In this document: positions 2,262 to 16,204 of the stretch, one piece after another
Layout: each line of letters opens with the position of its first letter
Numbering within the stretch: the first letter of the stretch is position 1
NCBI GenBank assembly: GCA_902782465.1
Contig: CACZNH010000007.1
Coordinates: 53,687 to 117,686 of the forward strand
Direction: 5' to 3'
Origin: an uncultured Bacteroidales bacterium
GTDB lineage: Bacteria; Bacteroidota; Bacteroidia; Bacteroidales; Muribaculaceae
DNA: 64,000 nt
Position numbers and translations under genes: made by a program
The notes under the pieces: generated by a model
Told to the model about the DNA's origin: nothing
Database searches by the model: none
What the model saw: the letters and a program-made list of their open reading frames with translations, nothing else

Positions 2262-2484
2262 CGGCAACTTGCCGAACTGACAAATTTTTCCACCTTCATT
2301 CACGTTTTTTAACAATCGAAGTTCATCTTGCTGAATCACGCGCCAAGAACACACAGTTATTCTTGGATTCAATTACAATTCTTTTAGCACCTACCCGCGC
2401 TGCTATTGAAAGTTTGCAGGACAGCTATTAGCAAACAGGGCACATAGCGTCTAATTCCGCCCTCTCTATGTTTCAAAGATTTGT

Positions 2485-3597
2485 TTAAAGATCGGGCGTA
2501 AGGGCTAAGCGTAGTCCAAGATGTCCACCGGTATCCGATGGATTCCAACCATACCGGCGTGATACTCGACAACTACTGTCACGACTGCCCCAACTACCGC
2601 CACGGCTAGCGCGTTTATTGGAATGACCTGTATCTACATCAACATAACCTTCAGAGTCATATTTGTCCTCACACCACTCCCAGACATTTCCGCTCATATC
2701 ATACAAGCCCAATTCATTTGGAGTGCCGCTGGCAACCCTATGCGTCCTGCCATCCGCATTGCCTCTGTACCATGCCACATAAGCAACCTCATTGCTGCCA
2801 GCATATTTAAACCCTTTGCTGCTATTACCTCCTCGGGCTGCAAATTCCCATTCCGCTTCTGTGGGCAGGCGAAAAGTCTTGCCAGTTATTTCGTTCAGTT
2901 TAGTAATAAACGTCTTACAATCATTCCAAGAAACACTTTCGACAGGTAGGTCTGTTTCACCATAAAAAACGCTAGGATTATCACCCATCACGGCTTCCCA
3001 CAAGGCTTGAGTTACTTGAGTCTCACCAATCCAGTAATTTGATAAAACCACTTCGTGAATAGGCTTTTCATCATCTTGAGCTTCAATAACCTGCTCGTCA
3101 GTAGCTCCCATCATAAACGTGCCGCCATAAACATAAACCATCTTGAATTCCACACCATTAACTGCAAATTCTTCAGTTGCTGACTGTACTGGACCTCCAA
3201 CAAATGGCAGCTTCACTTTTTTGGATTCAACAGTCTTGATGTGTTTTTTCTTTTCTTGCTTCTTTTGTTGTTTACGCTGTTCTTTACTTGCTGACTTTTC
3301 TTGGCTATCTTGTGAACTTGACGCGTTTCTATCGTTCTCCTCTTCCATGAAAACCACTTTTAATTCTTCCCAAAGTTTATCCTCATCTTCATAAGGCAAA
3401 TGGTTTTCAAGCTTTTGAAGAATCCTCTTTTCTTTGGTACCACCTTCGGATAGCCAATCTTTGAGTATTCCATCTTTATAAGCTGATATCAAGTCTTTGC
3501 GCAATTGAGAACCTTTATCTGACATACTTGAGAAATACTCTTTCAACTCCTCGATATCCAAGCAATACTCATTATTGATATATAGAACTGTCTTCAT
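2485..3597 (-). CDS. Cytoplasmic FGE-sulfatase/SUMF1-fold protein with an unknown N-terminal domain and a K/E/S/Q-rich linker
   Basis: The C-terminal ~230 aa carry GGTFMMG, ALWEAVMG, LPTEAEWEFAARGG, NELGLYDMSGNVWEWC and RGGSWGS...C..SRRYG...GLRLA, typical of the formylglycine-generating-enzyme fold. There is no signal peptide. Residues ~90-125 are a low-complexity linker (SSSQDSQEKSASKEQRKQQKKQEKKKH). Confidence 0.85.
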   Translation of the reverse strand: MKTVLYINNEYCLDIEELKEYFSSMSDKGSQLRKDLISAYKDGILKDWLSEGGTKEKRILQKLENHLPYEDEDKLWEELKVVFMEEENDRNASSSQDSQEKSASKEQRKQQKKQEKKKHIKTVESKKVKLPFVGGPVQSATEEFAVNGVEFKMVYVYGGTFMMGATDEQVIEAQDDEKPIHEVVLSNYWIGETQVTQALWEAVMGDNPSVFYGETDLPVESVSWNDCKTFITKLNEITGKTFRLPTEAEWEFAARGGNSSKGFKYAGSNEVAYVAWYRGNADGRTHRVASGTPNELGLYDMSGNVWEWCEDKYDSEGYVDVDTGHSNKRASRGGSWGSRDSSCRVSRRYGWNPSDTGGHLGLRLALTPDL

Positions 3598-3697
3598 CTC
3601 GTTTAATTGATGCTATATTATAATCAAATCCTTCATGCTGAAATTGCCTTAAACCAAAATATATAAGTTTCTACCAGCATACAAATCAAGCAATTCA

Positions 3698-5446
3698 CTA
3701 ATGAAACCACTTTTTAAACGTTCTTCTTCTTTTTTTGGCCGGAAGAAATCCTGGTTTTTCAGAAACCTTTTCAGAGGCATCTTTAAATTTGTACTTATTC
3801 TGCATTTCAATAATGCGCTCGATATTGGTCCATTCCTCTGGGCGTTTACGCTCTCGATTCTCAATATAATCAACACTATGCTGATTAGCCATAACTGAAT
3901 CTTTTAACGTCTCCACAGCGCGTGCAAAATCCTGTTCATCAATAGGTATCTTTGATGGAGAATCCGTCTTGTCAGAATACTCTGCAAACTTCTTCTCCAT
4001 CACCATATCAACAACACATTTTATCTCCGCGCCAGAGAAACCTCCGTACACTCCTTTCATATCTTTGACAATTCTCGCATGACACACTTCATCAGATTCA
4101 GGGAAATTAATGACAAAGATGCTATTAGGAATTTGACGGTATGGTTTAAGCGTTTTCTTTAATATATCTACACGCTCTTTGTCATTGGGAAAACCAACAA
4201 AATACACCTCGTCAAAACGGCCTTTTCTCATAAATTCAGGGCGCATCACATCATTCGCCGTGGCAACAATAAAAACAGGTGTTGAGCGTTCCTGCATCCA
4301 AGTGAGAAAATGCCCCATCAAACGCATGACCAACATATCATTATTATGACGACTGTTGCTTCCAGCAAAAGCCTTCTCTATTTCATCTATCCATAGCACA
4401 CATGGATGCGCAGCCTCGGCAGTAGCAAGAGCCTGTCTTAAATTATTCTCACTTTCGCCTACATATTTACCCATGAGGCGGCTAACATCCAAACGTAACA
4501 ACGACATTCCAAATTCATTAGCAACAGACTTTGCAATCATCGTTTTACCGCATCCAGGCATACCAATAATCAACACGCCTTTTGGAATGCTCACCTTATT
4601 TCTTTGGGCTTCACTCAAATTATTGAAAATCTTTGCTTTTCGCTTTAAATCACTCTTCAAGATTTCCAAACCACCAATCTTACTAAAGTCTTCATCTGCA
4701 TCAATAACCTCAATGATACCCGATTTGCGCACAATACTTTTTTTCTCTTCTAAAGCCAAGCGAATAGTCGTTTCCGTTATTCTGTTTCCTGTACGCACCA
4801 ATGTGGATTTTAAAATCTGCTTAATCTCATACTTCTGTAATCCATGTAAAGTACGACATAATTCCTTTCTTAAATACTCTTCTTTTTTCTTTTCATTTTC
4901 ATCCTGAGATTCTGGGACTACTTCTTTTAAAAGCTCATTAATTTCTATCTCCTCAGGAGCCTTGATATCGATGACTGTGATATATTTCTCTATTTCGCAA
5001 GGCAATGCTGTTACTGGTTGTGGGGATACTATTATAATCGTTGAGAAATGATTATATTCCTCCTTCTCATATCGTAAGGCAAACATCGTCAAAAGGCTCT
5101 GGATTCTTGGATCATGAAGAATGGAGAAATTCTTTAGTAACAAAATGGTTGGTTGGACCGAAAGTTTATTCATAACCAATTCAACCAGCAATGAATGAAC
5201 TTCCCCAAAATTATTGTAGTCATCATGGAGTTCCTTATCAGAAAAACTAACAACTTTCTGACGTCCACAATCAAATTCTATCACATTTTTCTCTAGAGAG
5301 ATATTATCAAAAACCCTATGAGGACTTTCTTGACTAATGATTCTACTCAACTGCTCTTCAATAAACTGAATGTGGAAATGAGGTATGTAAACGATAGGAC
5401 AACTCAAAATCGCTGTCATCAATTGATTCTTAAACTCCTTCTCCAT
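3698..5446 (-). CDS. Two-domain AAA+ ATPase: degenerate N-terminal half plus classical-clade AAA module and a basic C-terminal tail
   Basis: Walker A GMPGCGKT, Walker B VLWIDEIE, and a second region of homology VATANDVMRPEFMRKGRFDEVYFVGFPNDKER. The first ~290 aa have no P-loop. The tail is PAKKRRRTFKKWFH. Confidence 0.85.
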   Translation of the reverse strand: MEKEFKNQLMTAILSCPIVYIPHFHIQFIEEQLSRIISQESPHRVFDNISLEKNVIEFDCGRQKVVSFSDKELHDDYNNFGEVHSLLVELVMNKLSVQPTILLLKNFSILHDPRIQSLLTMFALRYEKEEYNHFSTIIIVSPQPVTALPCEIEKYITVIDIKAPEEIEINELLKEVVPESQDENEKKKEEYLRKELCRTLHGLQKYEIKQILKSTLVRTGNRITETTIRLALEEKKSIVRKSGIIEVIDADEDFSKIGGLEILKSDLKRKAKIFNNLSEAQRNKVSIPKGVLIIGMPGCGKTMIAKSVANEFGMSLLRLDVSRLMGKYVGESENNLRQALATAEAAHPCVLWIDEIEKAFAGSNSRHNNDMLVMRLMGHFLTWMQERSTPVFIVATANDVMRPEFMRKGRFDEVYFVGFPNDKERVDILKKTLKPYRQIPNSIFVINFPESDEVCHARIVKDMKGVYGGFSGAEIKCVVDMVMEKKFAEYSDKTDSPSKIPIDEQDFARAVETLKDSVMANQHSVDYIENRERKRPEEWTNIERIIEMQNKYKFKDASEKVSEKPGFLPAKKRRRTFKKWFH

Positions 5447-5458
5447 CTAAAAATCTAT

Positions 5459-6271
5459 TTAGGACAATAACTGAGTATTCGTTTCATCTTTGTCTTGAGG
5501 CAACTTGTCTTGAGGCAACTTGTCTTGAGGTGATTTGTCTTGAGGTGATTTGTCTTGAGGTGATCCAGTTTGTTGCAACTCGTATTGGGCTTTTTCCCAA
5601 AGTCGTTGTATTTGTAATTTTATCTTAGTTTCTGTTTTCAAAACCACATAACCAATAGCTCTTCCAACCTCTGTAGATTTCATTTCTTCGTAGTAATTAT
5701 GTAGTGTCCCTAAAGCATTATCGCAAATTTCCTTAGAGTTCATAATGAGTGATTTGCGTACTTCAATAGGAAGAATCTCCCACAAGAGTTTGCTTGTGGT
5801 ATAAATTACTGCAAAACACTTGTAACCGCTAATAATACGAATAAGACTTAATACGGTCAATGCACACTTTTTCGCTTCACTTAATTTGGCTACGATTTGA
5901 ACTAACGGTATAGCACGCTTTCGCCGATTATATTCCTGAACAGTTACAATGCCTTTTACCGTTGCATGGTATTCTAACTTTGCATAACGCATCGTCTCAC
6001 GCAAGTAGCGGGCATTCATTAATGCCACATGTTGTTTCTTATCTTCTGGTATATTTGGATTAGACCTTACCGTCATTATGGCTGCTACACTCAAGATAGT
6101 CTCGACTTTTGTTTCAATTTCGTCATCAAGTGGAGTTTCAAAATATTCAACTATAAATTTATTCTCAAAAAACTTTTCATCAATAGAGAATAACAAATAC
6201 TTGTTGTAACGACGCAAAGTGTTTATTGCCGAATAGATATTACCCAGTTGATTTAATCTACTATAACTCAT
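5459..6271 (-). CDS. Hypothetical protein with a C-terminal (S/L)PQDK pentapeptide repeat tail
   Basis: 270-aa ORF. It lies 12 nt upstream of the AAA+ start and 17 nt downstream of the preceding ORF, in the same AT-rich composition. I recognise no motif. Confidence 0.7.
   Translation of the reverse strand: MSYSRLNQLGNIYSAINTLRRYNKYLLFSIDEKFFENKFIVEYFETPLDDEIETKVETILSVAAIMTVRSNPNIPEDKKQHVALMNARYLRETMRYAKLEYHATVKGIVTVQEYNRRKRAIPLVQIVAKLSEAKKCALTVLSLIRIISGYKCFAVIYTTSKLLWEILPIEVRKSLIMNSKEICDNALGTLHNYYEEMKSTEVGRAIGYVVLKTETKIKLQIQRLWEKAQYELQQTGSPQDKSPQDKSPQDKLPQDKLPQDKDETNTQLLS
5490..5564. repeat. 5 x 15-bp tandem repeat (ttgtcttgagg + caac/tgat) inside the 3-prime end of the 270-aa ORF
   Basis: Read directly: 5490-5504 and 5505-5519 end in caac; 5520-5534, 5535-5549 and 5550-5564 end in tgat. 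It encodes SPQDK SPQDK SPQDK LPQDK LPQDK. Confidence 0.9.
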
Positions 6272-6288
6272 AACTATTGGCCTCCTGA

Positions 6289-6690
6289 TTATTCCATTGA
6301 ATCCACTTCATTTGTAAACTGTCCAATTTCCTTGACAATTGCTTTCTCAAGATTCTCCTCTATGGCTTTTTTAACGCTTTCTATATCCTTTTCAGTAGCA
6401 TCAGGAACCAACTGCTTGACTTGTCGATCCATCCATTTATCAGTATCAAAATCTGACTCTTTAAAGTCTGCCATCAGACGATGTTCTGTATTCACTTGAT
6501 TACAAATCATGCTAATAAGATCTTTCTCAATCTTATTATTTCCTTGAGATATCAACCAAGCATTTAATTCTTTATCATTTTTTCCATTAATTGTTTTAAA
6601 AAGAGAATCTGCATTTTGGGAAAAAGAATCTAAACCACCTTCAATGTAATCATTGTCAATCAGGTTCTCATCAAAAAATTCTTCTATCAT
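6289..6690 (-). CDS. Small acidic hypothetical protein (first gene of the cassette)
   Basis: 133-aa D/E-rich ORF on the same strand and with the same composition as the three downstream genes. No recognisable motif. Confidence 0.6.
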   Translation of the reverse strand: MIEEFFDENLIDNDYIEGGLDSFSQNADSLFKTINGKNDKELNAWLISQGNNKIEKDLISMICNQVNTEHRLMADFKESDFDTDKWMDRQVKQLVPDATEKDIESVKKAIEENLEKAIVKEIGQFTNEVDSME

Positions 6691-6798
6691 AACATTTTGA
6701 AAGTTTAAAATAACTGAATTATATGAAAAAGCAACTGGTTTGTTGTTTAATGATTAAACAATATCAATAAAGAACTAGCCAATTATCTTCCGTTTTTG

Positions 6799-6806
6799 CA
6801 AAATTA
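6799..6806 (-). promoter_or_regulatory. Candidate -7 promoter box (TAATTTTG on the minus strand) for the four-gene cassette
   Basis: Plus-strand caaaatta is the reverse complement of TAATTTTG and fits TAnnTTTG. It lies about 110 nt upstream of ATG 6690 and is embedded in a cluster of TTGCAA hexamers. Confidence 0.3.
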
Positions 6807-7034
6807 CAGATTTTTTTGAAAAAACAAAGAAAAATGCAAGAAAATTGCAAGATTTATTTGCAATTCTAGCATTACTTTAACCGATTGCAATCAAATCGAA
6901 AAATCGCTAATAAAAGATAAGAGCGTATTATCAATAATTATTTAATGCCAAAGAAGTAGTGTTAAATACCTTTCCTATATTGAGTAATCATCAGTAAGGT
7001 GTAGGTCATAGATGGCAAAGAAGGGATAAAACAA

Positions 7035-7077
7035 CATCAGGGACCTAGAGGCCCGTGGGCCAATAGTGTCCCTGATG
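7035..7077 (-). terminator. Hairpin downstream of the yqaE-like gene
   Basis: catcagggac (7035-7044) pairs perfectly with gtccctgatg (7068-7077). On the minus strand it is followed by a T-rich stretch, ttgtttta. Confidence 0.45.
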
Positions 7078-7129
7078 GTATCTATAATGCTTTTATGAAG
7101 AAACTTTTTTCCTTATTCAGACTGCATCG

Positions 7130-7330
7130 TTAGCGCTGAGTGGGGTATGTCGGGTAAGTGGGATAGTTGACGACGGTGGTTTCCTTATTCAGAATCACCA
7201 GGGCACCAATCACTCCCGGAATCCAGCCGCAGCAGGTGAGTATCGTTACAATCAAGAACGAGCCACAACCCTTGTCCAGCACAGCCAGCGGCGGGAAGAT
7301 AATCGATAATATTACCCTAAACAGTGACAT
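7130..7330 (-). CDS. YqaE/Pmp3-family small membrane proteolipid
   Basis: 66 aa with two hydrophobic helices (ILSIIFPPLAVLDKG..FLIVTILTCCGWIPGVIGALVIL), characteristic of UPF0057/Pmp3. The C-terminal tail is YPTYPTYPT. Confidence 0.8.
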   Translation of the reverse strand: MSLFRVILSIIFPPLAVLDKGCGSFLIVTILTCCGWIPGVIGALVILNKETTVVNYPTYPTYPTQR

Positions 7331-7423
7331 AGTTTTACTCCTTTCTTTTTATTAACCAAAACTCATTCCACCATACACCTGCAAATCCCATGCCAACTTC
7401 TCACCCCATCAGTTTTCGCCCAG

Positions 7424-7757
7424 GGCAACCGCACCAAAATCGGTTGTGTGCGACAAGTCATGCTGTGTGTCCAGACGCCCAAAGGGCGGCACATTGAATA
7501 ACCCCCAGTAAATCAGGCGACCGAGCGTGAGCGAGGGCACCTGATTCACTGGGGGTATAGAGGCCATCTCCTCGGGTCGCCTTCAGCGACCCCAATGTCG
7601 ATGACAAGTAAGGGGTCGCCTCCAGCGACATGGATTGTTGCATGCTTATCCCCGGGTAACGCAATCCACTTCGCTATCACTCAGCGAATTGCGTTGCCCG
7701 GGGTTACTCAGAGGCCACCCTCCGGGTGTTTTTGCGACACATTTTGGTGCGGTTGCC
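7424..7757 (+). other. Structured non-coding element bracketed by a 17-bp perfect inverted repeat (candidate ncRNA or MITE-like element)
   Basis: ggcaaccgcaccaaaat (7424-7440) is the exact reverse complement of attttggtgcggttgcc (7741-7757). Internal hairpins: 7502-7517/7540-7555 (15 of 16 bp); 7574-7580/7586-7592; 7615-7619/7625-7629; 7650-7665/7688-7703 (16 bp with one G-T) plus 7671-7675/7683-7687; and 7716-7720/7724-7728 followed by TTTTT. Strand assignment is tentative. Confidence 0.5.
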
Positions 7758-7872
7758 GTGGTTTTCTCTCTCTTTTCTTATCTATTTTGATTTTTATTAT
7801 TACCTTTGCCCTCGAGCAGTGACCACTGTCGCTGCTTGACATCGTGGATAACAATTAGCGTTGGCTATTATT

Positions 7873-7990
7873 CAAACGTTCAGAAACTTGCAGGTAGAAG
7901 AACAAACCAAAAGAATAATGGTGACGCTCACCTTGTGTGGGCGTTTCCAGTCTTTTGGTTTAGGTTTCCTGCAAGTACCTTGAACGTTGG
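7873..7990 (+). other. Long interrupted hairpin in the leader of the methyltransferase operon
   Basis: The left arm caaacgttcagaaacttgcaggtagaagaacaaaccaaaaga pairs with the right arm tcttttggtttaggtttcctgcaagtaccttgaacgttgg in three blocks (aacgttca, acttgcagg, aaaccaaaaga). Confidence 0.5.
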
Positions 7991-8091
7991 ACGGGGATTC
8001 GTCCACCTTCTGTGTCCATAGGGGTGCTTGCAGGAACGCTTTGTTTATTGGCCCAGCGCATTAATAATAACGACAACATTATTAATGCTTT

Positions 8092-9201
8092 ATGGCAAAC
8101 GAAAGTCTATCTAAGGCTAAGGAGGCCAAAAATGATGAGTTCTATACTCAATACCATGATATTGAGAAAGAAATCTCGGCCTATCTTGAGTATAACCCAG
8201 ATGTGTTCCGTGGCAAGACGGTGCTATTGCCGTGCGATGACCCCGAGTGGAGCAACTTTACCAAGTATTTTGCCCAAAACTTTGAAAATTTCGGCTTGAA
8301 AAAGTTGATTTCCACCAGTTATGCCCCCGAGAGCAAGCGGTACAAATTTGGCTATGTACCCACCCTGTTCGAGACGGAGGCACCACACTTTGATGCCGAC
8401 AAGAGCAAGACGCACGGCAAAATCTTCATCCTTGACCATGACGTGACCGGGGATGGAAAAATCAACGTCGAGGACCTGCAATGGCAATACCTGGAGGGCG
8501 ACGGCGACTTCCGCAGCCAGGAAATCTGCAACTTGCGCGATCAAGCCGATTTTATCATTACCAACCCACCTTTCTCTCTGTTCCGTCAATTCCTAGCCTG
8601 GGCTATGGACGTTGATAAAAAATTCTTAATTGTAGGCAATAAGAATGCTGTTACATATAAAGAAGTTTTTCCTCTTATCAAAGATAATAAGCTCTGGTCT
8701 GGCAGAACTGAATGGGCTGGCGGAATGTGGTTTGAGACCAAATACGAGGATGTGGATAGAGTGATCAATGGAGTAAAAATGAAAAATGTACCTTCCATCT
8801 GGTTTACTAATATTGACCATGGTCGCCGACATCAGCCATTAGCATTGATGACGATGTCTGATAATCTGAAATTTAGCAAACACAAGGAATTAAAAGGAAA
8901 AGACAGTTATTATCATTACGATAACTATGATGCAATCGAAGTTCCTTATACCGATGCTATTCCATGTGATTATGAAGGAACAATGGGAGTACCCATCTCA
9001 TTTCTTGACAAATACTGCCCCGAACAATTCGTAATAATCGGAATGGCTAAGCGAGGAGCAGGGGACCCAGCATTAAAAAGCAAAGTATATACTAAAGAAG
9101 ATTATCCAAATTACAGTGATTTAAACGCTACACCTGTGATTATCACTGATGGAGTACCTAAAAATACTTATCCCAGAATTTTAATCCGCAAAAAACAATA
9201 A
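8092..9201 (+). CDS. N6-adenine (amino) DNA methyltransferase, EcoRI-methylase-like family
   Basis: N-terminal NDEFYTQ motif, LLPCDD and the catalytic FIITNPPF (motif IV). The family assignment is from memory of PF13651-type proteins. Confidence 0.85.
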   Translation: MANESLSKAKEAKNDEFYTQYHDIEKEISAYLEYNPDVFRGKTVLLPCDDPEWSNFTKYFAQNFENFGLKKLISTSYAPESKRYKFGYVPTLFETEAPHFDADKSKTHGKIFILDHDVTGDGKINVEDLQWQYLEGDGDFRSQEICNLRDQADFIITNPPFSLFRQFLAWAMDVDKKFLIVGNKNAVTYKEVFPLIKDNKLWSGRTEWAGGMWFETKYEDVDRVINGVKMKNVPSIWFTNIDHGRRHQPLALMTMSDNLKFSKHKELKGKDSYYHYDNYDAIEVPYTDAIPCDYEGTMGVPISFLDKYCPEQFVIIGMAKRGAGDPALKSKVYTKEDYPNYSDLNATPVIITDGVPKNTYPRILIRKKQ

Positions 9202-9207
9202 GACGAT

Positions 9208-10368
9208 ATGGAAGCGATATTAAGGACTGATATTACCGTTCGCGACATCTGCGAGGGCTTTATCTATAACGAGTTGGAGGGCAAGGGCCTGTTTGGAATG
9301 AATGGAAAATTAACCATCCAACCCGAATACCAACGCAACTACATTTATGCCGACGGCAAAAAGGATGTCGCTGTCATCGATTCGGTACTGAAAGGTTATC
9401 CGTTAGGGGTTATGTACTTTAACCAAGTGGGTGACGATTATGAGGTGCTTGACGGGCAGCAGCGCATCACGAGCCTGGGCCGCTTTGTGACCCACAAACT
9501 TGCCATCAAGGACAAGAACGGCATGCAGCAATACATTGACGGCCTCAACGAGGAAGACCGCGACAAGGTGCTCAACACCCGTCTGCTCATCTACATCTGC
9601 AAGGGCACCGAGAGTGAAATCAAGGAATGGTTCCAAACCGTCAACATCCCTGGCGTGAACTTGAACAATCAGGAAAAACTCAATGCCGTCTATTCGGGAC
9701 CGTTTGTGACCGCTCTTAAAGAAGAATTCAGCAACTCACAAAACGCCAATATCCAAAAGTGGAGTGCCTATGTCAAGGGCTCGGCCAACCGTCAGGACTA
9801 TCTTGAGCGTGCCCTGCAATGGGTAAGCCAGGATAATGTGGATGCCTACATGAGCAAGCATCGACAAGATACCGACATCACTCCAGTCAAGGTTTATTTC
9901 AATGCCGTGATTGATTGGGCTTCAGGCGTGTTCAAGGATGTGCTGCCCGAGATGCGCGGCCTGGAATGGGGGCGATTCTATGAGGAGTACCACAACAAGC
10001 CTTACAATGTGGACGCCGTCTCCAAGCGTGTGCATGAACTGTATGCCGACCCCTATGTGACCAACCACAAGGGCGTGTTTGAGTACATCCTGGGCGGCGA
10101 GCAGGATGCTAGCCTGTTGAACATCCGCGTGTTTGACCGTGCGACCATCAACCGCGTCTATGCCAAGCAGACCGAGAAAGCCAAGCAAAAAGGCGTGAGC
10201 AACTGCCCCGACTGTGCGCTGCAAGAGGGCGGCAACAGCACCCGCATTTGGAAACTTGCCGAGATGGATGCCGACCACGTCACGGCATGGAGCAAGGGAG
10301 GCGCCACCAACGAGTCCAACTGCCAGATGCTGTGCAAGCACCACAACCGCTCCAAGGGCAACAAATAG
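9208..10368 (+). CDS. DUF262 (ParB/Srx-fold, GmrSD-N-like) protein with a C-terminal HNH nuclease domain
   Basis: IQPEYQRNY and LDGQQRITSL motifs in the N-terminal half. The C-terminus is CPDC...DADHVTAWSKGG..NESNCQMLCKHHNRSKGN (HNH). The start is 7 nt after the methyltransferase stop. Confidence 0.85.
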   Translation: MEAILRTDITVRDICEGFIYNELEGKGLFGMNGKLTIQPEYQRNYIYADGKKDVAVIDSVLKGYPLGVMYFNQVGDDYEVLDGQQRITSLGRFVTHKLAIKDKNGMQQYIDGLNEEDRDKVLNTRLLIYICKGTESEIKEWFQTVNIPGVNLNNQEKLNAVYSGPFVTALKEEFSNSQNANIQKWSAYVKGSANRQDYLERALQWVSQDNVDAYMSKHRQDTDITPVKVYFNAVIDWASGVFKDVLPEMRGLEWGRFYEEYHNKPYNVDAVSKRVHELYADPYVTNHKGVFEYILGGEQDASLLNIRVFDRATINRVYAKQTEKAKQKGVSNCPDCALQEGGNSTRIWKLAEMDADHVTAWSKGGATNESNCQMLCKHHNRSKGNK

Positions 10369-10397
10369 ACACTAAATAGCCAGAAACAATTTCTTCA

Positions 10398-10481
10398 CAC
10401 GAATGGCCATCAATGGCCATGAATGGAACATGAATAAAATATTATTGATGACCATTCGTGGCCAATTCACGGTCATTCGTG
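10398..10481. terminator. Long imperfect palindrome downstream of the HNH gene (terminator/REP-like)
   Basis: cacgaatggccatcaatggccatgaatgg faces ccattcgtggccaattcacggtcattcgtg. The arms are about 30 nt with a few mismatches. Confidence 0.5.
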
Positions 10482-10520
10482 TTCTAATACACATTACCGA
10501 CTACTTTGAAAATTTCATAA

Positions 10521-10585
10521 AAAACTAATATTTTTAGTTTTATTAACTAAAATAATTTGTTTTATAACTAAAACATTTAGTTAAT
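10521..10585. promoter_or_regulatory. Cluster of AACTAAA/TTTAGTT inverted boxes upstream of blaI-like gene (candidate operator)
   Basis: aaaactaa (10521-10528) pairs with ttagtttt (10534-10541). attaactaaa (10542-10551) pairs with tttagttaat (10576-10585). There is an extra ataactaaaa at 10564-10573. Confidence 0.35.
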
Positions 10586-10619
10586 TTGCGTCGTAAAACT
10601 CAAAAAGGCCCATTGAAAT

Positions 10620-10988
10620 ATGAAACAGTTAACAAACAAAGAAGAGGAAATCATGGAGCACATGTGGGACAAAGGCCCCATGCTGGTGCGCGAACTGCAA
10701 GCCTGCTACGACGAGCCCCGCCCCCATGTGAACACCTTGGCCACATTGATGAAGATATTGGAAGAGAAAGGCTTCCTGGGCCACAAGGCAATTACCGCCC
10801 GCTGCTTCCAGTATTTTGCCCGCATCAGCCGCGAGGAGTATCGCGGCGGCTCGTTGACCAATGTGGTCAACAAGTTCTTCGGCAAGTCCTACCTGAGCGC
10901 CGTCTCGGCCCTTGTCAAGAGTGAAAAGGTCAGCATCGACGACCTGAAGGAACTCATTCGCGAAGTGGAACAGAACAACCAACAGTAA
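10620..10988 (+). CDS. BlaI/MecI/CopY-family transcriptional repressor
   Basis: 122-aa winged-helix protein (EEEIMEHMWDKGPMLVRELQ...VNTLATLMKILEEKGFL) directly upstream of an M56 peptidase gene. Confidence 0.85.
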   Translation: MKQLTNKEEEIMEHMWDKGPMLVRELQACYDEPRPHVNTLATLMKILEEKGFLGHKAITARCFQYFARISREEYRGGSLTNVVNKFFGKSYLSAVSALVKSEKVSIDDLKELIREVEQNNQQ

Positions 10989-11004
10989 AAACTTCCCAAT
11001 CGCC

Positions 11005-12267
11005 ATGTTGCTTATCTATCAAATCAAAGTGGGCATTTGCCTCATCGCCTTCTACCTGGTGTGGAAGCTGCTGCTGAGCCGCGAGACCTTTCACCGCTTC
11101 AACCGCGTGGCGTTGCTGATGGTCATGGCCATCGCCCTAGTGCTGCCGTGGATTAAGGTCACGCTCGACAGCCCAGTGCAGACTGCAGCCCCGATTATCG
11201 TGCTTCAGGAGTTGCTGGTCGGTCCAGCCGATGCTGGTCAGTCCGTGCAGGCAGCACACTCGTGGAGCGTGCTGGACATTGCTAATGCGTTCTATTTCAT
11301 CGGGATGGCTGCGGTGCTGTTTTGGTTGCTGCACAGCCAGTGGAACCTGCGCCGCATATTCAGGCAAGGAAGGAGCGAGTCACTGCCTGGCGGCATCACC
11401 CTGCATGTGGTTCCTGGCAACGTGTCACCCTTCAGCTACTTCAACCACATTGTTATTAATGAGCAGGACTATCGGGACAACCCGCGCGAAATCCTGATTC
11501 ACGAGCAGGCACACATCAACCTGCGCCATTCCATCGATGTGGTATTCACAAGCCTGGTGACCCTGTTCCAGTGGTGGAATCCGGCTGCCTGGCTGCTGTG
11601 CCGTGAGTTGAGGCAAGTGCATGAGTATGAGGCCGATGAGGCCGTAATCAACGAGAACGTCGACGTCAAGCAGTACCAGTTGCTGCTGATACGCAAGTCC
11701 GTCGGGGACCAGCTATTCTCGATGGCAAATAGTTTCAATTATCAATCTCTAAAAAAACGAATCCGTATGATGACGATTAACAAAAGCAGCCGATGGAATA
11801 AATTGCGTGCGCTGGCTGCGGTGCCCGTGATAGCATTGGCCCTGTTGGCTTTTGCCAACCCCGAAACCGACACAGCCGAACTGGTTGTCGTGGCCTATCA
11901 GCAGGACAAAACAGAATCCGACCAGGTCTATAAGTCCGTTGAGCAGATGCCGCAGTTCCCCGGCGGCGAAGCAGCGATGATGAGGTATCTGTCACAAAAC
12001 ATCAAGTATCCTCCCAGTGCGGCCAAGAACAATATCGAGGGCCGAGTGATTCTGCAGTTTGTGGTGGAGAAGGATGGACAGATTGGAGAAGTCAAGATTG
12101 TCCGTTCGGTAGATCCCGAGCTTGATGCCGAGGCAGTCCGCGTGGTCAAGACAATGCCCAACTTCATCCCCGGCCGCCAAGACGGCAAACCCGTCGCCGT
12201 ATGGTACACCATCCCCATCTCCTTCAAACTCCAGGGCAAGCCCGAACAAACCCAGCAGCCCGAATAG
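11005..12267 (+). CDS. BlaR1/M56-family membrane peptidase fused to a C-terminal TonB-like domain
   Basis: N-terminal TM helices, the zinc motif HEQAHINLRH and a downstream YEADEAV. The C-terminal ~90 aa (MPQFPGGEAAMMRYL...GRVILQFVVEKDG...VAVWYTIPISF) resemble a TonB C-terminal domain. Confidence 0.85.
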   Translation: MLLIYQIKVGICLIAFYLVWKLLLSRETFHRFNRVALLMVMAIALVLPWIKVTLDSPVQTAAPIIVLQELLVGPADAGQSVQAAHSWSVLDIANAFYFIGMAAVLFWLLHSQWNLRRIFRQGRSESLPGGITLHVVPGNVSPFSYFNHIVINEQDYRDNPREILIHEQAHINLRHSIDVVFTSLVTLFQWWNPAAWLLCRELRQVHEYEADEAVINENVDVKQYQLLLIRKSVGDQLFSMANSFNYQSLKKRIRMMTINKSSRWNKLRALAAVPVIALALLAFANPETDTAELVVVAYQQDKTESDQVYKSVEQMPQFPGGEAAMMRYLSQNIKYPPSAAKNNIEGRVILQFVVEKDGQIGEVKIVRSVDPELDAEAVRVVKTMPNFIPGRQDGKPVAVWYTIPISFKLQGKPEQTQQPE

Positions 12268-12676
12268 GCTCAATACCCAGTTATTAAAGTTCAAAAAACA
12301 ACGAGCGCCAGGGTCCCCCACCCCAGCGCTCGTTAGTTTAATTGTAGCATCACACAAAAAGCCACTTTGCTCTTTGACGAAAGAATGCGGATGCCCTCAG
12401 AACTTTCAGATTTATCAGTTGTTAGAACGCAATAATGTCAATTTTATTCGATGAATTCGTTAAATTCGCCGATATTCAATTGACGCAGATGCCAACAAAA
12501 AATTGTTGTTTGTGTTGTTCAACGTTGTCATTGTTGTTTGAAAAAAGCGAAAGAAAGACCCCGGCGTTGCGGTGGGCAATGCCGGGGTTGTGGAAGATAT
12601 ATATCGGCGCGGGGATTACGCCCCGCGTAACCAGAGGCGGTTACTTCACTAATCTCTATTCTCTAATCTCTAATCT

Positions 12677-12701
12677 TCAAGTTCTGAAGGTTTCAGAACT
12701 T
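12677..12701. terminator. Perfect 11-bp hairpin between the convergent blaR1-like and gyrB genes
   Basis: caagttctgaa - ggt - ttcagaacttg, 4 nt beyond the gyrB stop. Confidence 0.5.
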
Positions 12702-12704
12702 GAA

Positions 12705-14714
<2,010 letters not shown>

Positions 14715-14839
14715 TCAAAAATCGGGGGTGTCTAAAAACGTACAAAATTACAAAAAACTGCCCATTCACCAAAACTTTCAATCCTTAAAAAACCATAATT
14801 CCAACGGGTATTTATGGCAATTGTGCTACTTTTGCAGCG

Positions 14840-16204
14840 ATGAATTTACCGGAGGCGTTTATAGAGCAATTACGAGACCTGCTGCCCGATGAATGGGAAG
14901 CTCTGACTAGTGCCATCACGACAACCGAACCCAGCGTTGCCGTGCGTGTCAACGAGGCCCGTGGAGCGTCGGTGCCCGATGGTGTCCGCCGTGTCCCCTG
15001 GTGCGAGCAGGGCCTTTATCTGGCCGACAGGCCCGTATTCACCTTCGATACCGACTGGCATGCTGGTCGCTACTATGTTCAGGACGCCTCGTCGATGTTT
15101 ATCGCCCACGCCATCAAGCACCTGGTTCACGAACCCGTGCGCTACCTTGACCTGTGCGCTGCACCCGGCGGCAAGACCACGGCCGCTATCCAGGCGCTGC
15201 CGTCCCCCTCACTGGTGGTCGCCAACGAGATTGTGCCGCCACGCGCCCGCGTGCTGGCCGACAACGTCATCCGCTGGGGCAATCCACGCTGCGTGGTGAC
15301 GAGCAACGCCCCCGCACAATTCAGCAAACTGACGCATTTCTTTGACGTCATCGCTGCCGACGTGCCCTGCAGTGGCGAGGGCATGATGCGCAAGGACGAT
15401 GAGGCGGTGGCCCAGTGGTCCCCTACCCTAGTCGCCCAGTGCGCCCAGCGGCAACGTGAAATCCTCACCGATGCCTGGCAAGCCCTGCGACCCGGCGGAC
15501 TGCTCATCTACAGCACCTGCACCTATAACCGTCAGGAAAACGAGGATATGGCCGACTTTATCGTCAACGAGTTGGGCGCCACCTCGCTTGAAATACCCAT
15601 AGAGCCTTCATGGAATATCCATCCTGCCATCGGCAGCGATTGCCACTGCTACCGCTTCATGCCCCATCGTGTGGACGGTGAGGGTCTGTTTATGGCCGCA
15701 TTCCGCAAGGAGGGCAACGGCACGCGCCAGATGCCGCGAATCAAGGAAAAAACCATAAAAAAAGTCGATGAAACCGTCAAAAAGTGGCTATCATCGCCCG
15801 ACGGCTTCATTATGGACCAGCAAGGCGACCTCTTCATTGCCGTGCCACAGGACATCCGCAGCGAAGTCGCAACCCTGCGTGCCACACTGAACGTGTTGCA
15901 TGCCGGCGTGGAGATGGCGACGTTGATGGGACGCAAAACGGTGCCGCATCACGCCCTGGCGATGTCATTGGCAAGGTCCGCCGATGCCTTCCCAATGTGC
16001 GAGGTGGACTACCCCAGCGCACTGCGTTACCTGCGCGGCGAGAGCATCAGCATTGACGGTCCGCGTGGTTATGTTCTCGTCGCCCATGAGGGAGCCGTGC
16101 TGGGCTTTGCCAACAACCTGGGGAATCGAGCCAACAACCTATATCCCAAATCATTACGCATATTAAGCACCCATCTTCCCGACGAGAAACCACACTGCCT
16201 GTGA
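14840..16204 (+). CDS. NOL1/NOP2/Sun-family rRNA cytosine-C5 methyltransferase (RsmF/RsmB-like)
   Basis: SAM-binding motif DLCAAPGGKT and catalytic Cys motifs DVPCSGEGMMRKD and YSTCTYN. Confidence 0.8.
   Translation: MNLPEAFIEQLRDLLPDEWEALTSAITTTEPSVAVRVNEARGASVPDGVRRVPWCEQGLYLADRPVFTFDTDWHAGRYYVQDASSMFIAHAIKHLVHEPVRYLDLCAAPGGKTTAAIQALPSPSLVVANEIVPPRARVLADNVIRWGNPRCVVTSNAPAQFSKLTHFFDVIAADVPCSGEGMMRKDDEAVAQWSPTLVAQCAQRQREILTDAWQALRPGGLLIYSTCTYNRQENEDMADFIVNELGATSLEIPIEPSWNIHPAIGSDCHCYRFMPHRVDGEGLFMAAFRKEGNGTRQMPRIKEKTIKKVDETVKKWLSSPDGFIMDQQGDLFIAVPQDIRSEVATLRATLNVLHAGVEMATLMGRKTVPHHALAMSLARSADAFPMCEVDYPSALRYLRGESISIDGPRGYVLVAHEGAVLGFANNLGNRANNLYPKSLRILSTHLPDEKPHCL

Follow-up and report, generated by a model that had tools for sequence, protein, structure and literature searches.

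A four-gene cassette (A to D) in this 64-kb window, the whole stretch of Bacteroidales DNA analysed, looks like an undescribed and widespread bacterial conflict or defence system. Our preferred reading, to which we give a probability of roughly 45%, is a conflict system centred on an ATPase and spread by horizontal transfer, whose targets are most probably phages or other mobile genetic elements; in it D would be the sensor or adaptor and B a membrane-acting partner. The defence role is suggested by association. The first-pass annotation could match the genes to no named defence system, and neither could we: no name for the cassette as a system was found in PADLOC 2.0, NCBIfam, Pfam or the literature, PADLOC returning only generic AAA matches (IetA, TRIP13) for C. 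The earlier picture of an unnamed mobile unit, with an AAA+ ATPase of the class then recognised and lying in defence islands, survives; its assignment of the effector role to the FGE-fold protein and of accessory roles to A and B finds no support.

Layout, composition and recurrence of the cassette

The four genes share one strand and are separated by gaps of 17, 12 and 100 nt (A/B, B/C and C/D), as first described, and the flanking genes are also those then proposed.

6691-6900, minus strand: upstream region, candidate promoter/operator, AT-rich (GC 0.30)
6289-6690, minus strand: gene A, leading the cassette; 133-aa acidic protein, fold unassigned
5459-6271, minus strand: gene B; 270-aa basic all-helical protein (ORF call)
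5489-5564, minus strand: 15-nt tandem repeat, 5.1 copies (TRF), coding for the (S/L)PQDK tail of B
3698-5446, minus strand: gene C; 582-aa classical-clade AAA+ ATPase (ORF call)
2485-3597, minus strand: gene D; 370-aa protein, DN plus FGE-sulfatase-fold domain (ORF call)
3343-3597, minus strand: N-terminal DN domain of D, ~85 aa, no name in the libraries searched
3163-3342, minus strand: low-complexity, K/E/Q-rich linker between DN and the FGE domain of D
2485-3162, minus strand: FGE-sulfatase-fold (C-type-lectin-like) domain of D (PF03781, E 7e-43)
789-2165: tnaA, flanking the cassette
7130-7330: Pmp3, flanking the cassette on the side opposite tnaA
8092-9201: EcoRI-like methyltransferase, starting ~1.4 kb from the cassette
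9208-10368: GmrSD_N (DUF262)+HNH enzyme, adjoining the methyltransferase

The contrast in composition, first noted from two single lines of sequence, is exact in its counts (19 G+C in 4621-4680 of the cassette, 37 in 1021-1080 of tnaA) and extends to whole genes: GC is 0.378 in the cassette against 0.576 in tnaA and 0.586 in gyrB, and GC3 is 0.26-0.37 in the cassette genes against 0.78-0.82 in tnaA and gyrB. This gap is far beyond chance and thus points to horizontal acquisition. The adjoining stretch with Pfam calls, ~14-34 kb of the window, holds housekeeping genes. The region 6691-6900 carries a candidate Bacteroidetes-type -7 box TAATTTTG, repeated TTGCAA and 11-nt repeats (one at 6827-6852), and may serve as promoter/operator of the operon.

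It had been proposed to ask whether the genes co-occur elsewhere; the same four families are found together beyond this genome and at unrelated sites, with the order A-B-C-D in at least six unrelated flanking contexts. Permuted orders, seen in distant relatives, are A-B-DNx-C in Segatella copri (L017, L105), C-A-B-DN.FGE in L103, A.B / DNx / C on an Exiguobacterium plasmid and DNx-C-A.B on a Clostridium butyricum plasmid. Fusions join C to FGE (L101 and L110), A to B (the distant relatives L091, L167 and L168) and B to C (P0040, on 5 contigs). In L007, L010 and L086, A and B are together replaced by a zincin-like protein (HExxH...QPxE) and a 150-aa partner. Since they recur together at unrelated sites, in permuted orders and with B-C, A-B and C-FGE fusions, the four genes are a real conserved, mobile unit and not a chance cluster.

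Known defence genes are often present in the flanks, in keeping with the defence-island layout first suggested for the window. Across loci the neighbours include type II R-M, McrBC, PDDEXK/REase, TIR, CHAT and DUF4011 helicase genes, as well as Shosta-like genes, Eleos LeoA/LeoBC, PDC-S01/S27 and WYL regulators; the L004/L171 context, between Omp85 and the Nqr operon, holds no known defence genes. Two diverged alleles occupy one site in one species (tnaA protein 100% identical) and are 52-90% identical within the cassette and 99-100% outside it. Allelic divergence, composition and context together suggest a conflict-type locus.

The AAA+ ATPase and its relatives

The classification of C as a two-domain, classical-clade AAA+ protein stands. 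Residues 291-418 match PF00004 (E 3e-30), and the D2 motifs are Walker A GMPGCGKT, Walker B WIDEIE, pore loop KYVG and the SRH RPEFMRKGRFDEV, which carries RKGRFDEV; the Walker A, Walker B, pore-loop and arginine residues are invariant across the C-family alignment. The D1-like alpha/beta domain (residues ~1-240) is degenerate, lacking Walker A and containing a conserved PIVYIPHFH. Sequence matches in the PDB are to p97/Cdc48 D2 (E 5e-49), and Foldseek aligns the AF2 model (pLDDT 80) over ~560-600 columns to the D1-D2 modules of Rix7, p97, NVL and AFG2 (TM 0.55-0.60), at only 16-21% identity. Because the motifs are invariant and the model matches D1-D2 unfoldases along its full chain, C is, as judged from motifs and model, a type-II-like AAA+ protein with a degenerate D1 and a predicted active, threading D2.

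The type II classical AAA+ unfoldases Cdc48/p97, Rix7/NVL and AFG2 act together with adaptors that recruit their substrates. C has in common with these unfoldases the tandem AAA-fold architecture, the pore-loop-1 K-Y-V-G and the Walker/SRH motifs, and the logic of a ring ATPase with interchangeable binding-domain adaptors is analogous. The differences are that (i) D1 of C has PIVYIPHFH instead of a P-loop; (ii) C has no room for a separate N domain, the Foldseek alignments starting at the D1-like domain; and (iii) A, B and DN are unrelated to the UBX, SHP and Ufd1-Npl4 adaptors.

IetAS is reportedly a defence system of an AAA+ ATPase and a protease (Gao et al. 2020), and IetA is the top PADLOC match of C (E 5e-22, across the AAA module). 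This match is confined to the generic AAA domain; the NCBIfam model IteA requires 510 bits and gives C 59, the cassette has no IetS subtilase and IetA has no D1-like domain.

From about residue 100 onwards C is 30-40% identical to the Ycf46-like/phrog_8638 family of bacteria, archaea, plasmids and phages, and its homologues are labelled 'SpoVK/Ycf46/Vps4 family' by JGI. Most members have no A, B or DN-protein neighbours. In C, the HFH motif and the stretch up to about residue 100 are specific to the cassette-linked clade. Since this wide family is found without A, B and D in many bacteria, archaea and phages, the ATPase alone is not defence-specific.

Such relatives bear on a role in mobile elements or in antagonism between bacteria (anti-defence, superinfection exclusion, or toxin loading into a secretion or contractile-injection apparatus), with the AAA+ protein as cargo-loading chaperone and DN as delivery tag. 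Phage AAA+ homologues (phrog_8638, E 5e-86; a mycobacteriophage 'AAA-ATPase', ~30% identity), a distant variant (L173) on a contig classed as viral, Firmicute versions on plasmids beside transposases and recombinases, and the motif HELxHARQ of the zincin-like replacement, which we take to recall toxin-associated metallopeptidase domains, would all fit. We regard this role as quite improbable, since IMG/VR and GenBank phages contain no close relative (>40% identity), secretion, injection-system and phage structural genes are absent beside every cassette examined, visual inspection of the A-D N-termini shows no signal peptide, and DN proteins bear binding modules rather than toxins.

Genes A and B

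A is acidic (pI 4.3) and B repeat-tailed, as first noted, B being basic (pI 9.1). None of the models in PADLOC 2.0, NCBIfam, Pfam and PHROGs assigns a name to A, B or DN. A has no match in Pfam, PHROG, NCBIfam or the PDB and nothing significant in PADLOC (a single marginal LeoBC match, E 0.003); its homologues lie directly upstream of B in L001-6, L009, L088 and L169-172. B has no significant match in PADLOC and none in a PDB fold search, and its AF2 model (pLDDT 68) is all helices. In the alignment a conserved helical domain makes up the N-terminal part of B (~12-120); a hydrophobic/Gly-rich hairpin of helices (~137-166) comes next, and amphipathic helices followed by the SPQDK repeat tail form the C-terminal part. 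Copy number in this tail differs among close relatives: P0121, at 98% identity, is one copy short of the window protein. The tail is absent from other B homologues in the alignment. For each of the eight Bacteroidales B family members scored, 19-residue hydropathy peaks within 1.66-2.24, the hairpin of the window allele being only marginally hydrophobic (KD19 1.71); the peak is 1.38 in the Gly-rich L090 protein. Distant members give sub-threshold matches to Gly-zipper_Omp, C19orf12 and YtxH. B is predicted to be a membrane-hairpin protein that would act at the membrane.

A and B had been cast as accessory or specificity proteins. Because B has a membrane hairpin and A+B are replaced by the zincin-like pair in sister cassettes, they are better effector candidates than the FGE-fold protein; the swap itself appears effector-like, and B would be an effector beyond a mere anchor. 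Alternatively, B could act as a membrane anchor or be a substrate.

Anchoring is central to a rival account, that of a non-immune housekeeping or stress machine for membrane protein quality control. Here a Ycf46-like AAA+ protein would be anchored by a YtxH/glycine-zipper-like B, and lectin-fold adaptors would bring in endogenous clients, glycosylated or envelope ones for instance, to be extracted or unfolded. This account draws on the spread of the wider AAA+ family across bacteria, including cyanobacteria, and archaea, mostly without A, B and D; on the NCBI label 'YtxH domain-containing' of a Microcystis A.B-like partner; on the similarity of the B-C fusion to membrane-anchored AAA+ proteins; and on the lack of a classical toxic enzyme in the window cassette, profile searches finding a recognisable enzymatic killing domain in none of its four proteins. 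It is made unlikely by the patchy distribution and strongly foreign composition, different insertion sites in different genomes, two highly diverged alleles at a single site in one species, tandem D paralogue arrays and hypervariable binding faces, and links to a DGR, a TIR-FGE protein and many known defence genes. To our knowledge such behaviour is not usual for housekeeping systems.

The lectin-fold protein D and a proposed mechanism

The recognition of D as a cytoplasmic FGE-fold protein is upheld: PF03781 spans residues 152-365 and there is no signal peptide. D has no significant match in PADLOC. The best PDB match of its lectin-fold domain is TvpA (2y3c, E 1e-31), true FGEs following at 4e-17, and GSRDSSC replaces the FGE motif LCHDSYC, so that the first of two catalytic cysteines is missing; the domain is probably non-catalytic. 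Hypervariable ligand-face positions are interspersed in a conserved scaffold (RGG..C..R..G.RL). In L009 a neighbouring TIR-FGE protein has a very similar FGE domain, which departs from that of D at the C-terminal variable region.

DN is N-terminal in every one of 73 representative DN proteins from a library of 1.84 billion proteins, and DN proteins adjoin an AAA+ gene in all loci examined, with tandem copies in L086 (five) and L172 (two). A PDB search gave no match for DN, and hhalign shows no homology between DN and any stretch of C (probability 1.4%). Partner domains elsewhere are FGE (28/74), Lcl_C, WG_beta_rep (WG repeats) and Sel1, and the individually inspected DN proteins contain no enzymatic domain. 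A scan of 74 members gave a single SMODS match, not assignable to one member. DN would be an adaptor domain. Because D is TvpA-like, lacks a catalytic cysteine, has DN, a domain fused to binding modules, and displays a hypervariable ligand face, it is best read as a putative sensor or adaptor, and the effector role first proposed for it is unlikely.

D might instead be a plain DGR variable protein, the cassette being the target module of a DGR elsewhere in the genome, like the AAA-CLec targets of CPR bacteria. TvpA, its closest structural relative, is a DGR target; in the distant locus L022 a DGR reverse transcriptase and a template repeat rich in Asn accompany several FGE proteins and a related AAA+ protein; and CLec-AAA ATPase fusions, common DGR targets in CPR bacteria according to PMC10907252, offer a precedent, AAA-FGE fusions also occurring in the cassette relatives L101 and L110. 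In the cassette, however, the lectin domain belongs to a protein distinct from the ATPase, and that protein has a predicted adaptor domain of its own. The 64-kb window holds neither template repeat nor reverse transcriptase, there being no repeat of the D 3' end and no ORF of at least 200 aa with the RT-type motif Y[AVLIMC]DD. The C-terminus of D has no Asn-codon-rich signature, and the two species alleles share 99% identity in the segment that encodes the VR equivalent (2485-2700) but differ by 10-48% over the remainder of the cassette. Diversity here arises from paralogy and module swapping. A DGR target module is very improbable.

A conflict system, our preferred reading, has parallels in NTPase-centred systems with intracellular FGS (FGE-sulfatase/C-type-lectin) sensor domains, for which a role in binding molecules from invaders has been proposed (Kaur, Burroughs, Iyer & Aravind 2020, PMC7159879; Kaur et al. 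2021, PMC8195603). As those accounts present them, they share with the cassette an NTPase core coupled to an FGS/lectin-fold domain, swappable modules, multiple paralogues and occasional DGR linkage. Their cores are MoxR-vWA-VMAP, (i)STAND or GAP1 GTPase, whereas that of the cassette is a classical-clade D1*-D2 unfoldase; neither vWA nor VMAP was found in the cassette. DN could not be matched to any domain that the accounts set out and is not duplicated on the NTPase, so the 'EAD principle' of these systems does not hold, and A and B have no counterparts among the components given there.

We propose that the products of A, B, C and D form one complex. C would be a ring unfoldase resembling Cdc48/Rix7, in which D1 is inactive while D2 hydrolyses ATP and threads the substrate. 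D would be the specificity subunit, with DN docking on C and the TvpA-like lectin-fold domain binding an invader-derived protein or glycan. Swapping of the binding module, or extra tandem D paralogues, would alter or broaden recognition. The hydrophobic/glycine-zipper hairpin of B would hold it at or in the inner membrane, and acidic A would be the partner of B. Binding of ligand by D would switch on C, which may then remodel A/B such that B perturbs the membrane and brings about abortive infection, or may unfold the captured target directly. The FGE-like protein would be the sensor rather than the weapon of the system.

Layout, recurrence and alleles of the cassette

The cassette consists of four minus-strand genes separated by gaps of 17, 12 and 100 nt, placed just as in the first-pass annotation.

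6690-6289, minus strand: gene A, ORF of 133 aa
6271-5459, minus strand: gene B, ORF of 270 aa
5446-3698, minus strand: gene C, ORF of 582 aa
3597-2485, minus strand: gene D, ORF of 370 aa

The block lies between tnaA and a Pmp3 gene and is compositionally foreign. GC is 0.378 over A-D with GC3 of 0.26-0.37, as against 0.576 and 0.78 for tnaA and 0.586 and 0.82 for gyrB. Both the flanking genes and the foreign composition had been recognised at the outset, and the two base counts then quoted (19 G+C in a line of the cassette and 37 in a line of tnaA) are exact. No tRNA, Rfam RNA or integration-site features occur in window 1-20 kb. Over 12,165 nt the window matches an ENA gut-metagenome scaffold at 100% identity, the closest named genome being a Muribaculaceae MAG. 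Upstream of A (window 6780-6900, minus strand) motifs that contain TTGCAA recur, alongside an 11-nt tandem repeat at 6827-6852 and a TAATTTTG element that resembles the Bacteroidetes -7 box; these may form an operator/promoter architecture.

Full-length homologues of C, the AAA+ ATPase, are abundant (at least 120 clusters at 90% identity, each sharing 50% or more identity with C; the matches listed align over 72% or more of its length). Wherever context was fetched for the closer homologues, the same four families stand in the same order in unrelated surroundings: (i) alongside GH97 and PDDEXK genes; (ii) with Omp85 on one side and the Nqr operon on the other; (iii) alongside a CHAT protein and a DUF4011 helicase; (iv) in Bacteroidaceae MAGs. 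More distant versions were recovered with HMMs built from the cassette proteins. In their gene orders, DN denotes the ~85-aa N-terminal domain of D, DN.FGE its fusion to an FGE domain and DNx another DN protein.

Gene orders in more distant versions
A-B-DNx-C: Segatella copri (L017) and the related metagenome contigs L105 and L096
C-A-B-DN.FGE: locus L103
A.B / DNx / C, three genes, A and B fused: Exiguobacterium acetylicum plasmid
DNx / C / A.B, three genes, A and B fused: Clostridium butyricum plasmid

B and C form a single ORF (P0040) on five contigs, A and B share one polypeptide in distant relatives, and C is fused to an FGE domain in L101 and L110 (769-797 aa). Such fusions tie the components together physically. 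The question of whether the four genes keep company beyond this genome, raised with the first-pass annotation, is answered by families that recur together both as neighbours and as fusions. The seemingly truncated forms of A (61 aa) and C (484 aa) on related contigs come from different gene calls on DNA that is itself identical.

Within one species (11 contigs with 100% identical tnaA protein) two cassette alleles occupy the same site. Their DNA is 99-100% identical in the flanks, 52-90% identical in the cassette interior, lowest in the 3' half of B, and 99% identical over the C-terminus of the D lectin domain. Abrupt mosaic borders of this kind are typically seen at loci where selection is diversifying or alleles are often exchanged. 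A housekeeping role, with C acting in a Ycf46-like quality-control machine, is a possible explanation of the cassette, against which stands its patchy, foreign, polymorphic and modular behaviour.

The AAA+ ATPase and its lectin-fold partner

The second AAA-fold domain (D2) of C matches D2 of p97/Cdc48 with an E value of 5e-49, and the best matches of C, which are CDC48, PAN and FtsH, place it in the classical clade. Across 22 homologues G295-K301, D354/E355, Y328-V329-G330 and R402/R407/R410 show no variation or almost none; the pore loop is K-Y-V-G, and Walker A/B and the SRH arginines are present in the active domain. An AlphaFold model of C (pLDDT 80) aligns in Foldseek over ~560-600 columns with the D1-D2 tandems of Rix7, p97, NVL and AFG2 (TM 0.55-0.60). 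GxxxxGK is absent from residues 1-240, and the superposition on D1-D2 tandems indicates that this region is a degenerate, P-loop-less AAA-fold domain. By its predicted structure, C is a type II classical AAA+ protein, unfoldase-like in the manner of Cdc48 and Rix7, and its earlier description as 'two-domain' was right.

At the position of the lost D1 P-loop, residues 17-25 of C (window 5372-5398) carry a P-x-x-Y-I-x-H-x-H motif (PIVYIPHFH) that is invariant in the cassette-linked clade and replaced by acidic residues in more distant relatives; the motif may mark a new site for a ligand or partner. In P0027, a homologue on a metagenome contig of the same species (L193 2377-3732), a 48-nt stretch takes the place of 148 nt of C, with loss of sensor-1 and the SRH arginine fingers and retention of the reading frame. 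Either the allele was inactivated in nature or the change is an assembly artefact.

D has three parts: DN, a low-complexity linker and an FGE-sulfatase-fold domain (PF03781, E 6.8e-43, residues 152-365). The best solved relative of the latter is TvpA, a lectin-fold variable protein of a diversity-generating retroelement (DGR) (2y3c, E 1.3e-31), with true FGEs at 4e-17. Aligned to the Streptomyces FGE 6muj, D has GSRDSSC for LCHDSYC, so that the first catalytic, Cu-binding Cys is Ser, the second is kept and the C-x4-C pair of FGE/SUMF1 is incomplete. Catalytic FGE activity or sulfatase maturation was rejected, one catalytic Cys being gone and no sulfatase family occurring in the genes called or annotated around the cassettes examined.

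DN has no match among Pfam, NCBIfam, PADLOC or PHROG models or PDB sequences, and a DN-only word-index search of a 5.8-billion-protein database gave none. An exhaustive search of representatives found 73 representative DN proteins. The FGE-sulfatase domain is present in 28 of the 74 DN proteins scanned; in others DN is joined to Lcl_C (itself lectin-like), to WG beta-repeats or to Sel1 repeats, and many of the proteins consist of DN only. No enzymatic effector domain was found among the DN proteins inspected individually. The AAA+ gene adjoins a DN protein gene in all loci examined, and DN genes can stand in tandem, two in L172 and five in L086. The five L086 genes (8687-15317) are consecutive, follow the AAA+ gene and encode four FGE folds and one protein with another C-terminal part.

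The first-pass annotation took the FGE-fold protein for the effector. The replaced catalytic Cys, the likeness to TvpA and the fusion of DN to binding modules speak against that role, and D is probably a sensor or adaptor, as judged from sequence. Two further loci strengthen the sensor reading. In L009 a TIR-zinc-ribbon-coiled-coil-FGE protein (6739-8610) lies directly upstream of the cassette; it is 55% identical to D over 346 aligned residues including the dissimilar linker, is visibly much closer in the FGE part and diverges from D at the C-terminal variable segment. In L022 (1-12041), from an Acidobacteriia MAG, a related AAA+ gene is followed by genes for five short FGE proteins and a Ser/Thr-kinase fusion protein, with a DGR reverse transcriptase at 8492-9634 and, within 6597-7757, a segment that is Asn-rich and template-repeat-like. 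L022 shows the AAA+/lectin partnership in a DGR-diversified form.

Among 36 DN-FGE proteins the C-terminal scaffold RGG..C..R..G.RL is kept and the positions interspersed in it are the most variable of the domain, an arrangement that DGR variable regions also have. That the window cassette is itself a simple DGR target was rejected in cis. Window 2401-3000 is not repeated elsewhere in the 64-kb window, which holds no template repeat for it, and no ORF of at least 200 aa in the window has the reverse-transcriptase motif Y[AVLIMC]DD. Between strains there is no adenine-directed hypervariation, and the variable-region equivalent (2401-2700) is 99% identical between alleles whose interiors are 52-90% identical.

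A, B and the effector position

A is acidic (pI 4.3) and has no relatives outside the cassette in Pfam, NCBIfam, PADLOC, PHROGs or PDB. B is basic (pI 9.1) with an all-helical model (pLDDT 68) that has no structural neighbour in PDB, the best Foldseek E value being not below 0.38. Its N-terminal half is strongly conserved. A hydrophobic, Gly/Pro-centred hairpin of 30-40 residues, with RRKR just before it, becomes an overt glycine zipper in distant members, and the C-terminal helices are amphipathic. The tail of B repeats the pentapeptide SPQDK / (S/L)PQDK, encoded by a 15-nt x 5.1 tandem repeat (window 5489-5564, minus strand). One copy fewer is present in P0121, a 98%-identical homologue, and other homologues have no tail; it looks like a slippage-prone appendage with no obvious function.

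In L007, L010 and L086, A and B are replaced by a zincin-like protein of ~250 aa (HELxHARQ...QPxE, with weak Pfam support) and a partner of ~150 aa, and C and the DN protein stay. Profile comparison relates neither B to the zincin-like protein (hhalign probability 4%) nor A to the 150-aa partner (0.3%), and remote-homology searches of A, B, DN and the zincin-like protein gave nothing credible against PDB sequences. Component swapping of this kind is usual at effector positions. The exchange makes B, or the zincin-like protein, the better effector candidate, and A would be an acidic partner or regulator of B. The B-C fusion fits B as a membrane anchor of the ring equally well as it fits B as effector.

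Upstream in L086, the zincin-like protein and its 186-aa partner are encoded along with two large unknown proteins, of which one has Sel1 repeats. L087 (2492-5112) and L088 (3076-5660) have, ahead of A-B-C, an extra Hsp70/actin-like ATPase of 617 aa (Pfam HSP70 weak, E 0.0045) and a protein of ~240 aa whose N-terminal segment is hydrophobic. Their DN protein is only 102 aa, DN alone, and the arrangement looks like an extended variant of the system.

Neighbourhood, known systems and proposed function

Most contexts have known defence genes no further than ~10 kb away.

Defence-related neighbours of the cassette and its relatives
Window and L001: type II R-M
L002: PDDEXK/REase-ARP gene
L009: TIR-FGE protein, and RelA/SpoT-like protein directly downstream (13099-13989)
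Exiguobacterium: McrBC
C. butyricum (by annotation), L101 and L110 (similar by eye): WYL regulators directly upstream
L169: Shosta-like genes
L172: CHAT protein and DUF4011 helicase

PADLOC, run on 144 flanking ORFs of 17 loci, gave strong matches to LeoA/LeoBC, PDC-S01, PDC-S27, PDC-M37B, mad3, WYL, ShosT and AbiLi; taken from the cassette loci alone, these matches are suggestive of a defence neighbourhood and are not a measured enrichment.

In the window, the R-M-like pair begins 1.4 kb from the cassette, as first noted, and comprises an EcoRI-family methyltransferase and a GmrSD_N+HNH enzyme (8092-10368, plus strand; PADLOC MTase_II, E 4e-83, and REase_II, E 8e-88). The methyltransferase is mosaic between two strains of the same species (69-87% identity at 8400-9300, 96-99% either side), which may reflect a changed specificity domain. 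The Pmp3-methyltransferase intergenic region at 7200-7800 is 11-61% identical between strains otherwise 99-100% identical; it contains short ORFs only, with no tRNA or Rfam family, and represents DNA replaced at the edge of the island. Beside the R-M genes (10620-12267, plus strand) lie a BlaI/Penicillinase_R-like repressor gene, recognised by homology to an L001 gene call, and a Peptidase_M56/TonB_C sensor gene; this pair is 99-100% conserved between strains.

A phage or mobile-element function, or a part in secretion loading, is a rival explanation that draws on the distant AAA+ homologues found in phages (phrog_8638). Against it, the cassette has no close relatives in GenBank phages or IMG/VR, on which ground phage or prophage origin was rejected, and the adjoining window stretch of ~14-34 kb is annotated housekeeping. 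The flanks examined hold no secretion or injection genes, including the sheath, tube or baseplate genes of an Afp15/Pvc15-like ATPase context.

The cassette had been said to match no named system, and it does not: PADLOC and NCBIfam give only generic AAA matches or sub-cut-off scores, to IetAS, TRIP13, DolB and mad8. C scores 59.4 bits against NF042959 of IetAS (cut-off 510), its PADLOC IetA match covers the AAA module only, and no peptidase_S8, as in the IetS subtilase, occurs in cassette or flanks. CBASS TRIP13 is matched at just E 2e-9 across the AAA module, and neither HORMA nor CD-NTase gave a match. The MoxR-vWA/iSTAND systems (Kaur et al. 2020) share the FGS (FGE-sulfatase/C-type-lectin) domain with D, its invader-binding role there being a proposal. 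They combine MoxR-type AAA+ with vWA and VMAP/iSTAND, whereas C is classical-clade and no vWA family is found in the cassette. They also carry the same EAD on NTPase and effectors, whereas DN is not on C (hhalign probability 1.4%) and no AAA domain is among the families listed in Pfam scans of DN proteins.

In their accessible parts, two papers (PMC7159879, PMC8195603) propose that FGS domains bind invaders inside the cell as modules of MoxR-vWA, STAND and GTPase systems, a third (PMC10907252) mentions that fusions of CLec with AAA ATPases are DGR targets in CPR bacteria, and none of the three describes the cassette itself. An incomplete search of the literature on FGE/FGS with AAA+ or anti-phage, on Ycf46 with defence and on CLec-AAA gave thematic precedents and no description of the cassette. 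The cassette is best filed, on comparative grounds, as a putative variation on a known theme, namely an NTPase core with a lectin-fold sensor and swappable effectors, in which the Cdc48-like unfoldase core and the adaptor domain DN would be new.

Comparative genomics thus supports the cassette as a candidate conflict/defence system not yet described, the part of the first-pass proposal that stood; the roles it assigned are probably inverted, with the FGE protein as sensor or adaptor and B as membrane-acting partner or effector. We tentatively propose, at a probability of roughly 0.3, that this is a new class of immune system in prokaryotes with a Cdc48-like unfoldase at its centre. Lectin-fold receptors that can be exchanged for one another (DN-FGE, DN-Lcl_C, DN-WG, DN-Sel1), sometimes in tandem or DGR-diversified, would capture invader proteins or glycans and pass the target to the ring ATPase. 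The ring would then either unfold the target mechanically or release the glycine-zipper membrane protein (in sister systems, the zincin protease), killing the cell. This would be a bacterial counterpart, for immunity, of adaptor-guided p97 action, in Bacteroidota, Bacillota, Spirochaetota and others. Since related versions exist in cultured Segatella copri N016-9, Clostridium butyricum CBUT and Exiguobacterium acetylicum UTDF19-27C, the hypothesis is directly testable.

If the cassette is a defence system, its core would be distinct, a protein-threading classical AAA+ in place of a STAND, MoxR or ABC-type ATPase, and DN would be a new adaptor domain marking a family of swappable intracellular receptors. 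The label 'formylglycine-generating enzyme family', which many cytoplasmic proteins carry, would also be corrected under this hypothesis. The cassette occurs commonly in gut metagenomes, and the 'antigen sensor' idea for lectin folds, which comes from DGR and conflict-system genomics, would be linked to the abundant Bacteroidales of the human gut.
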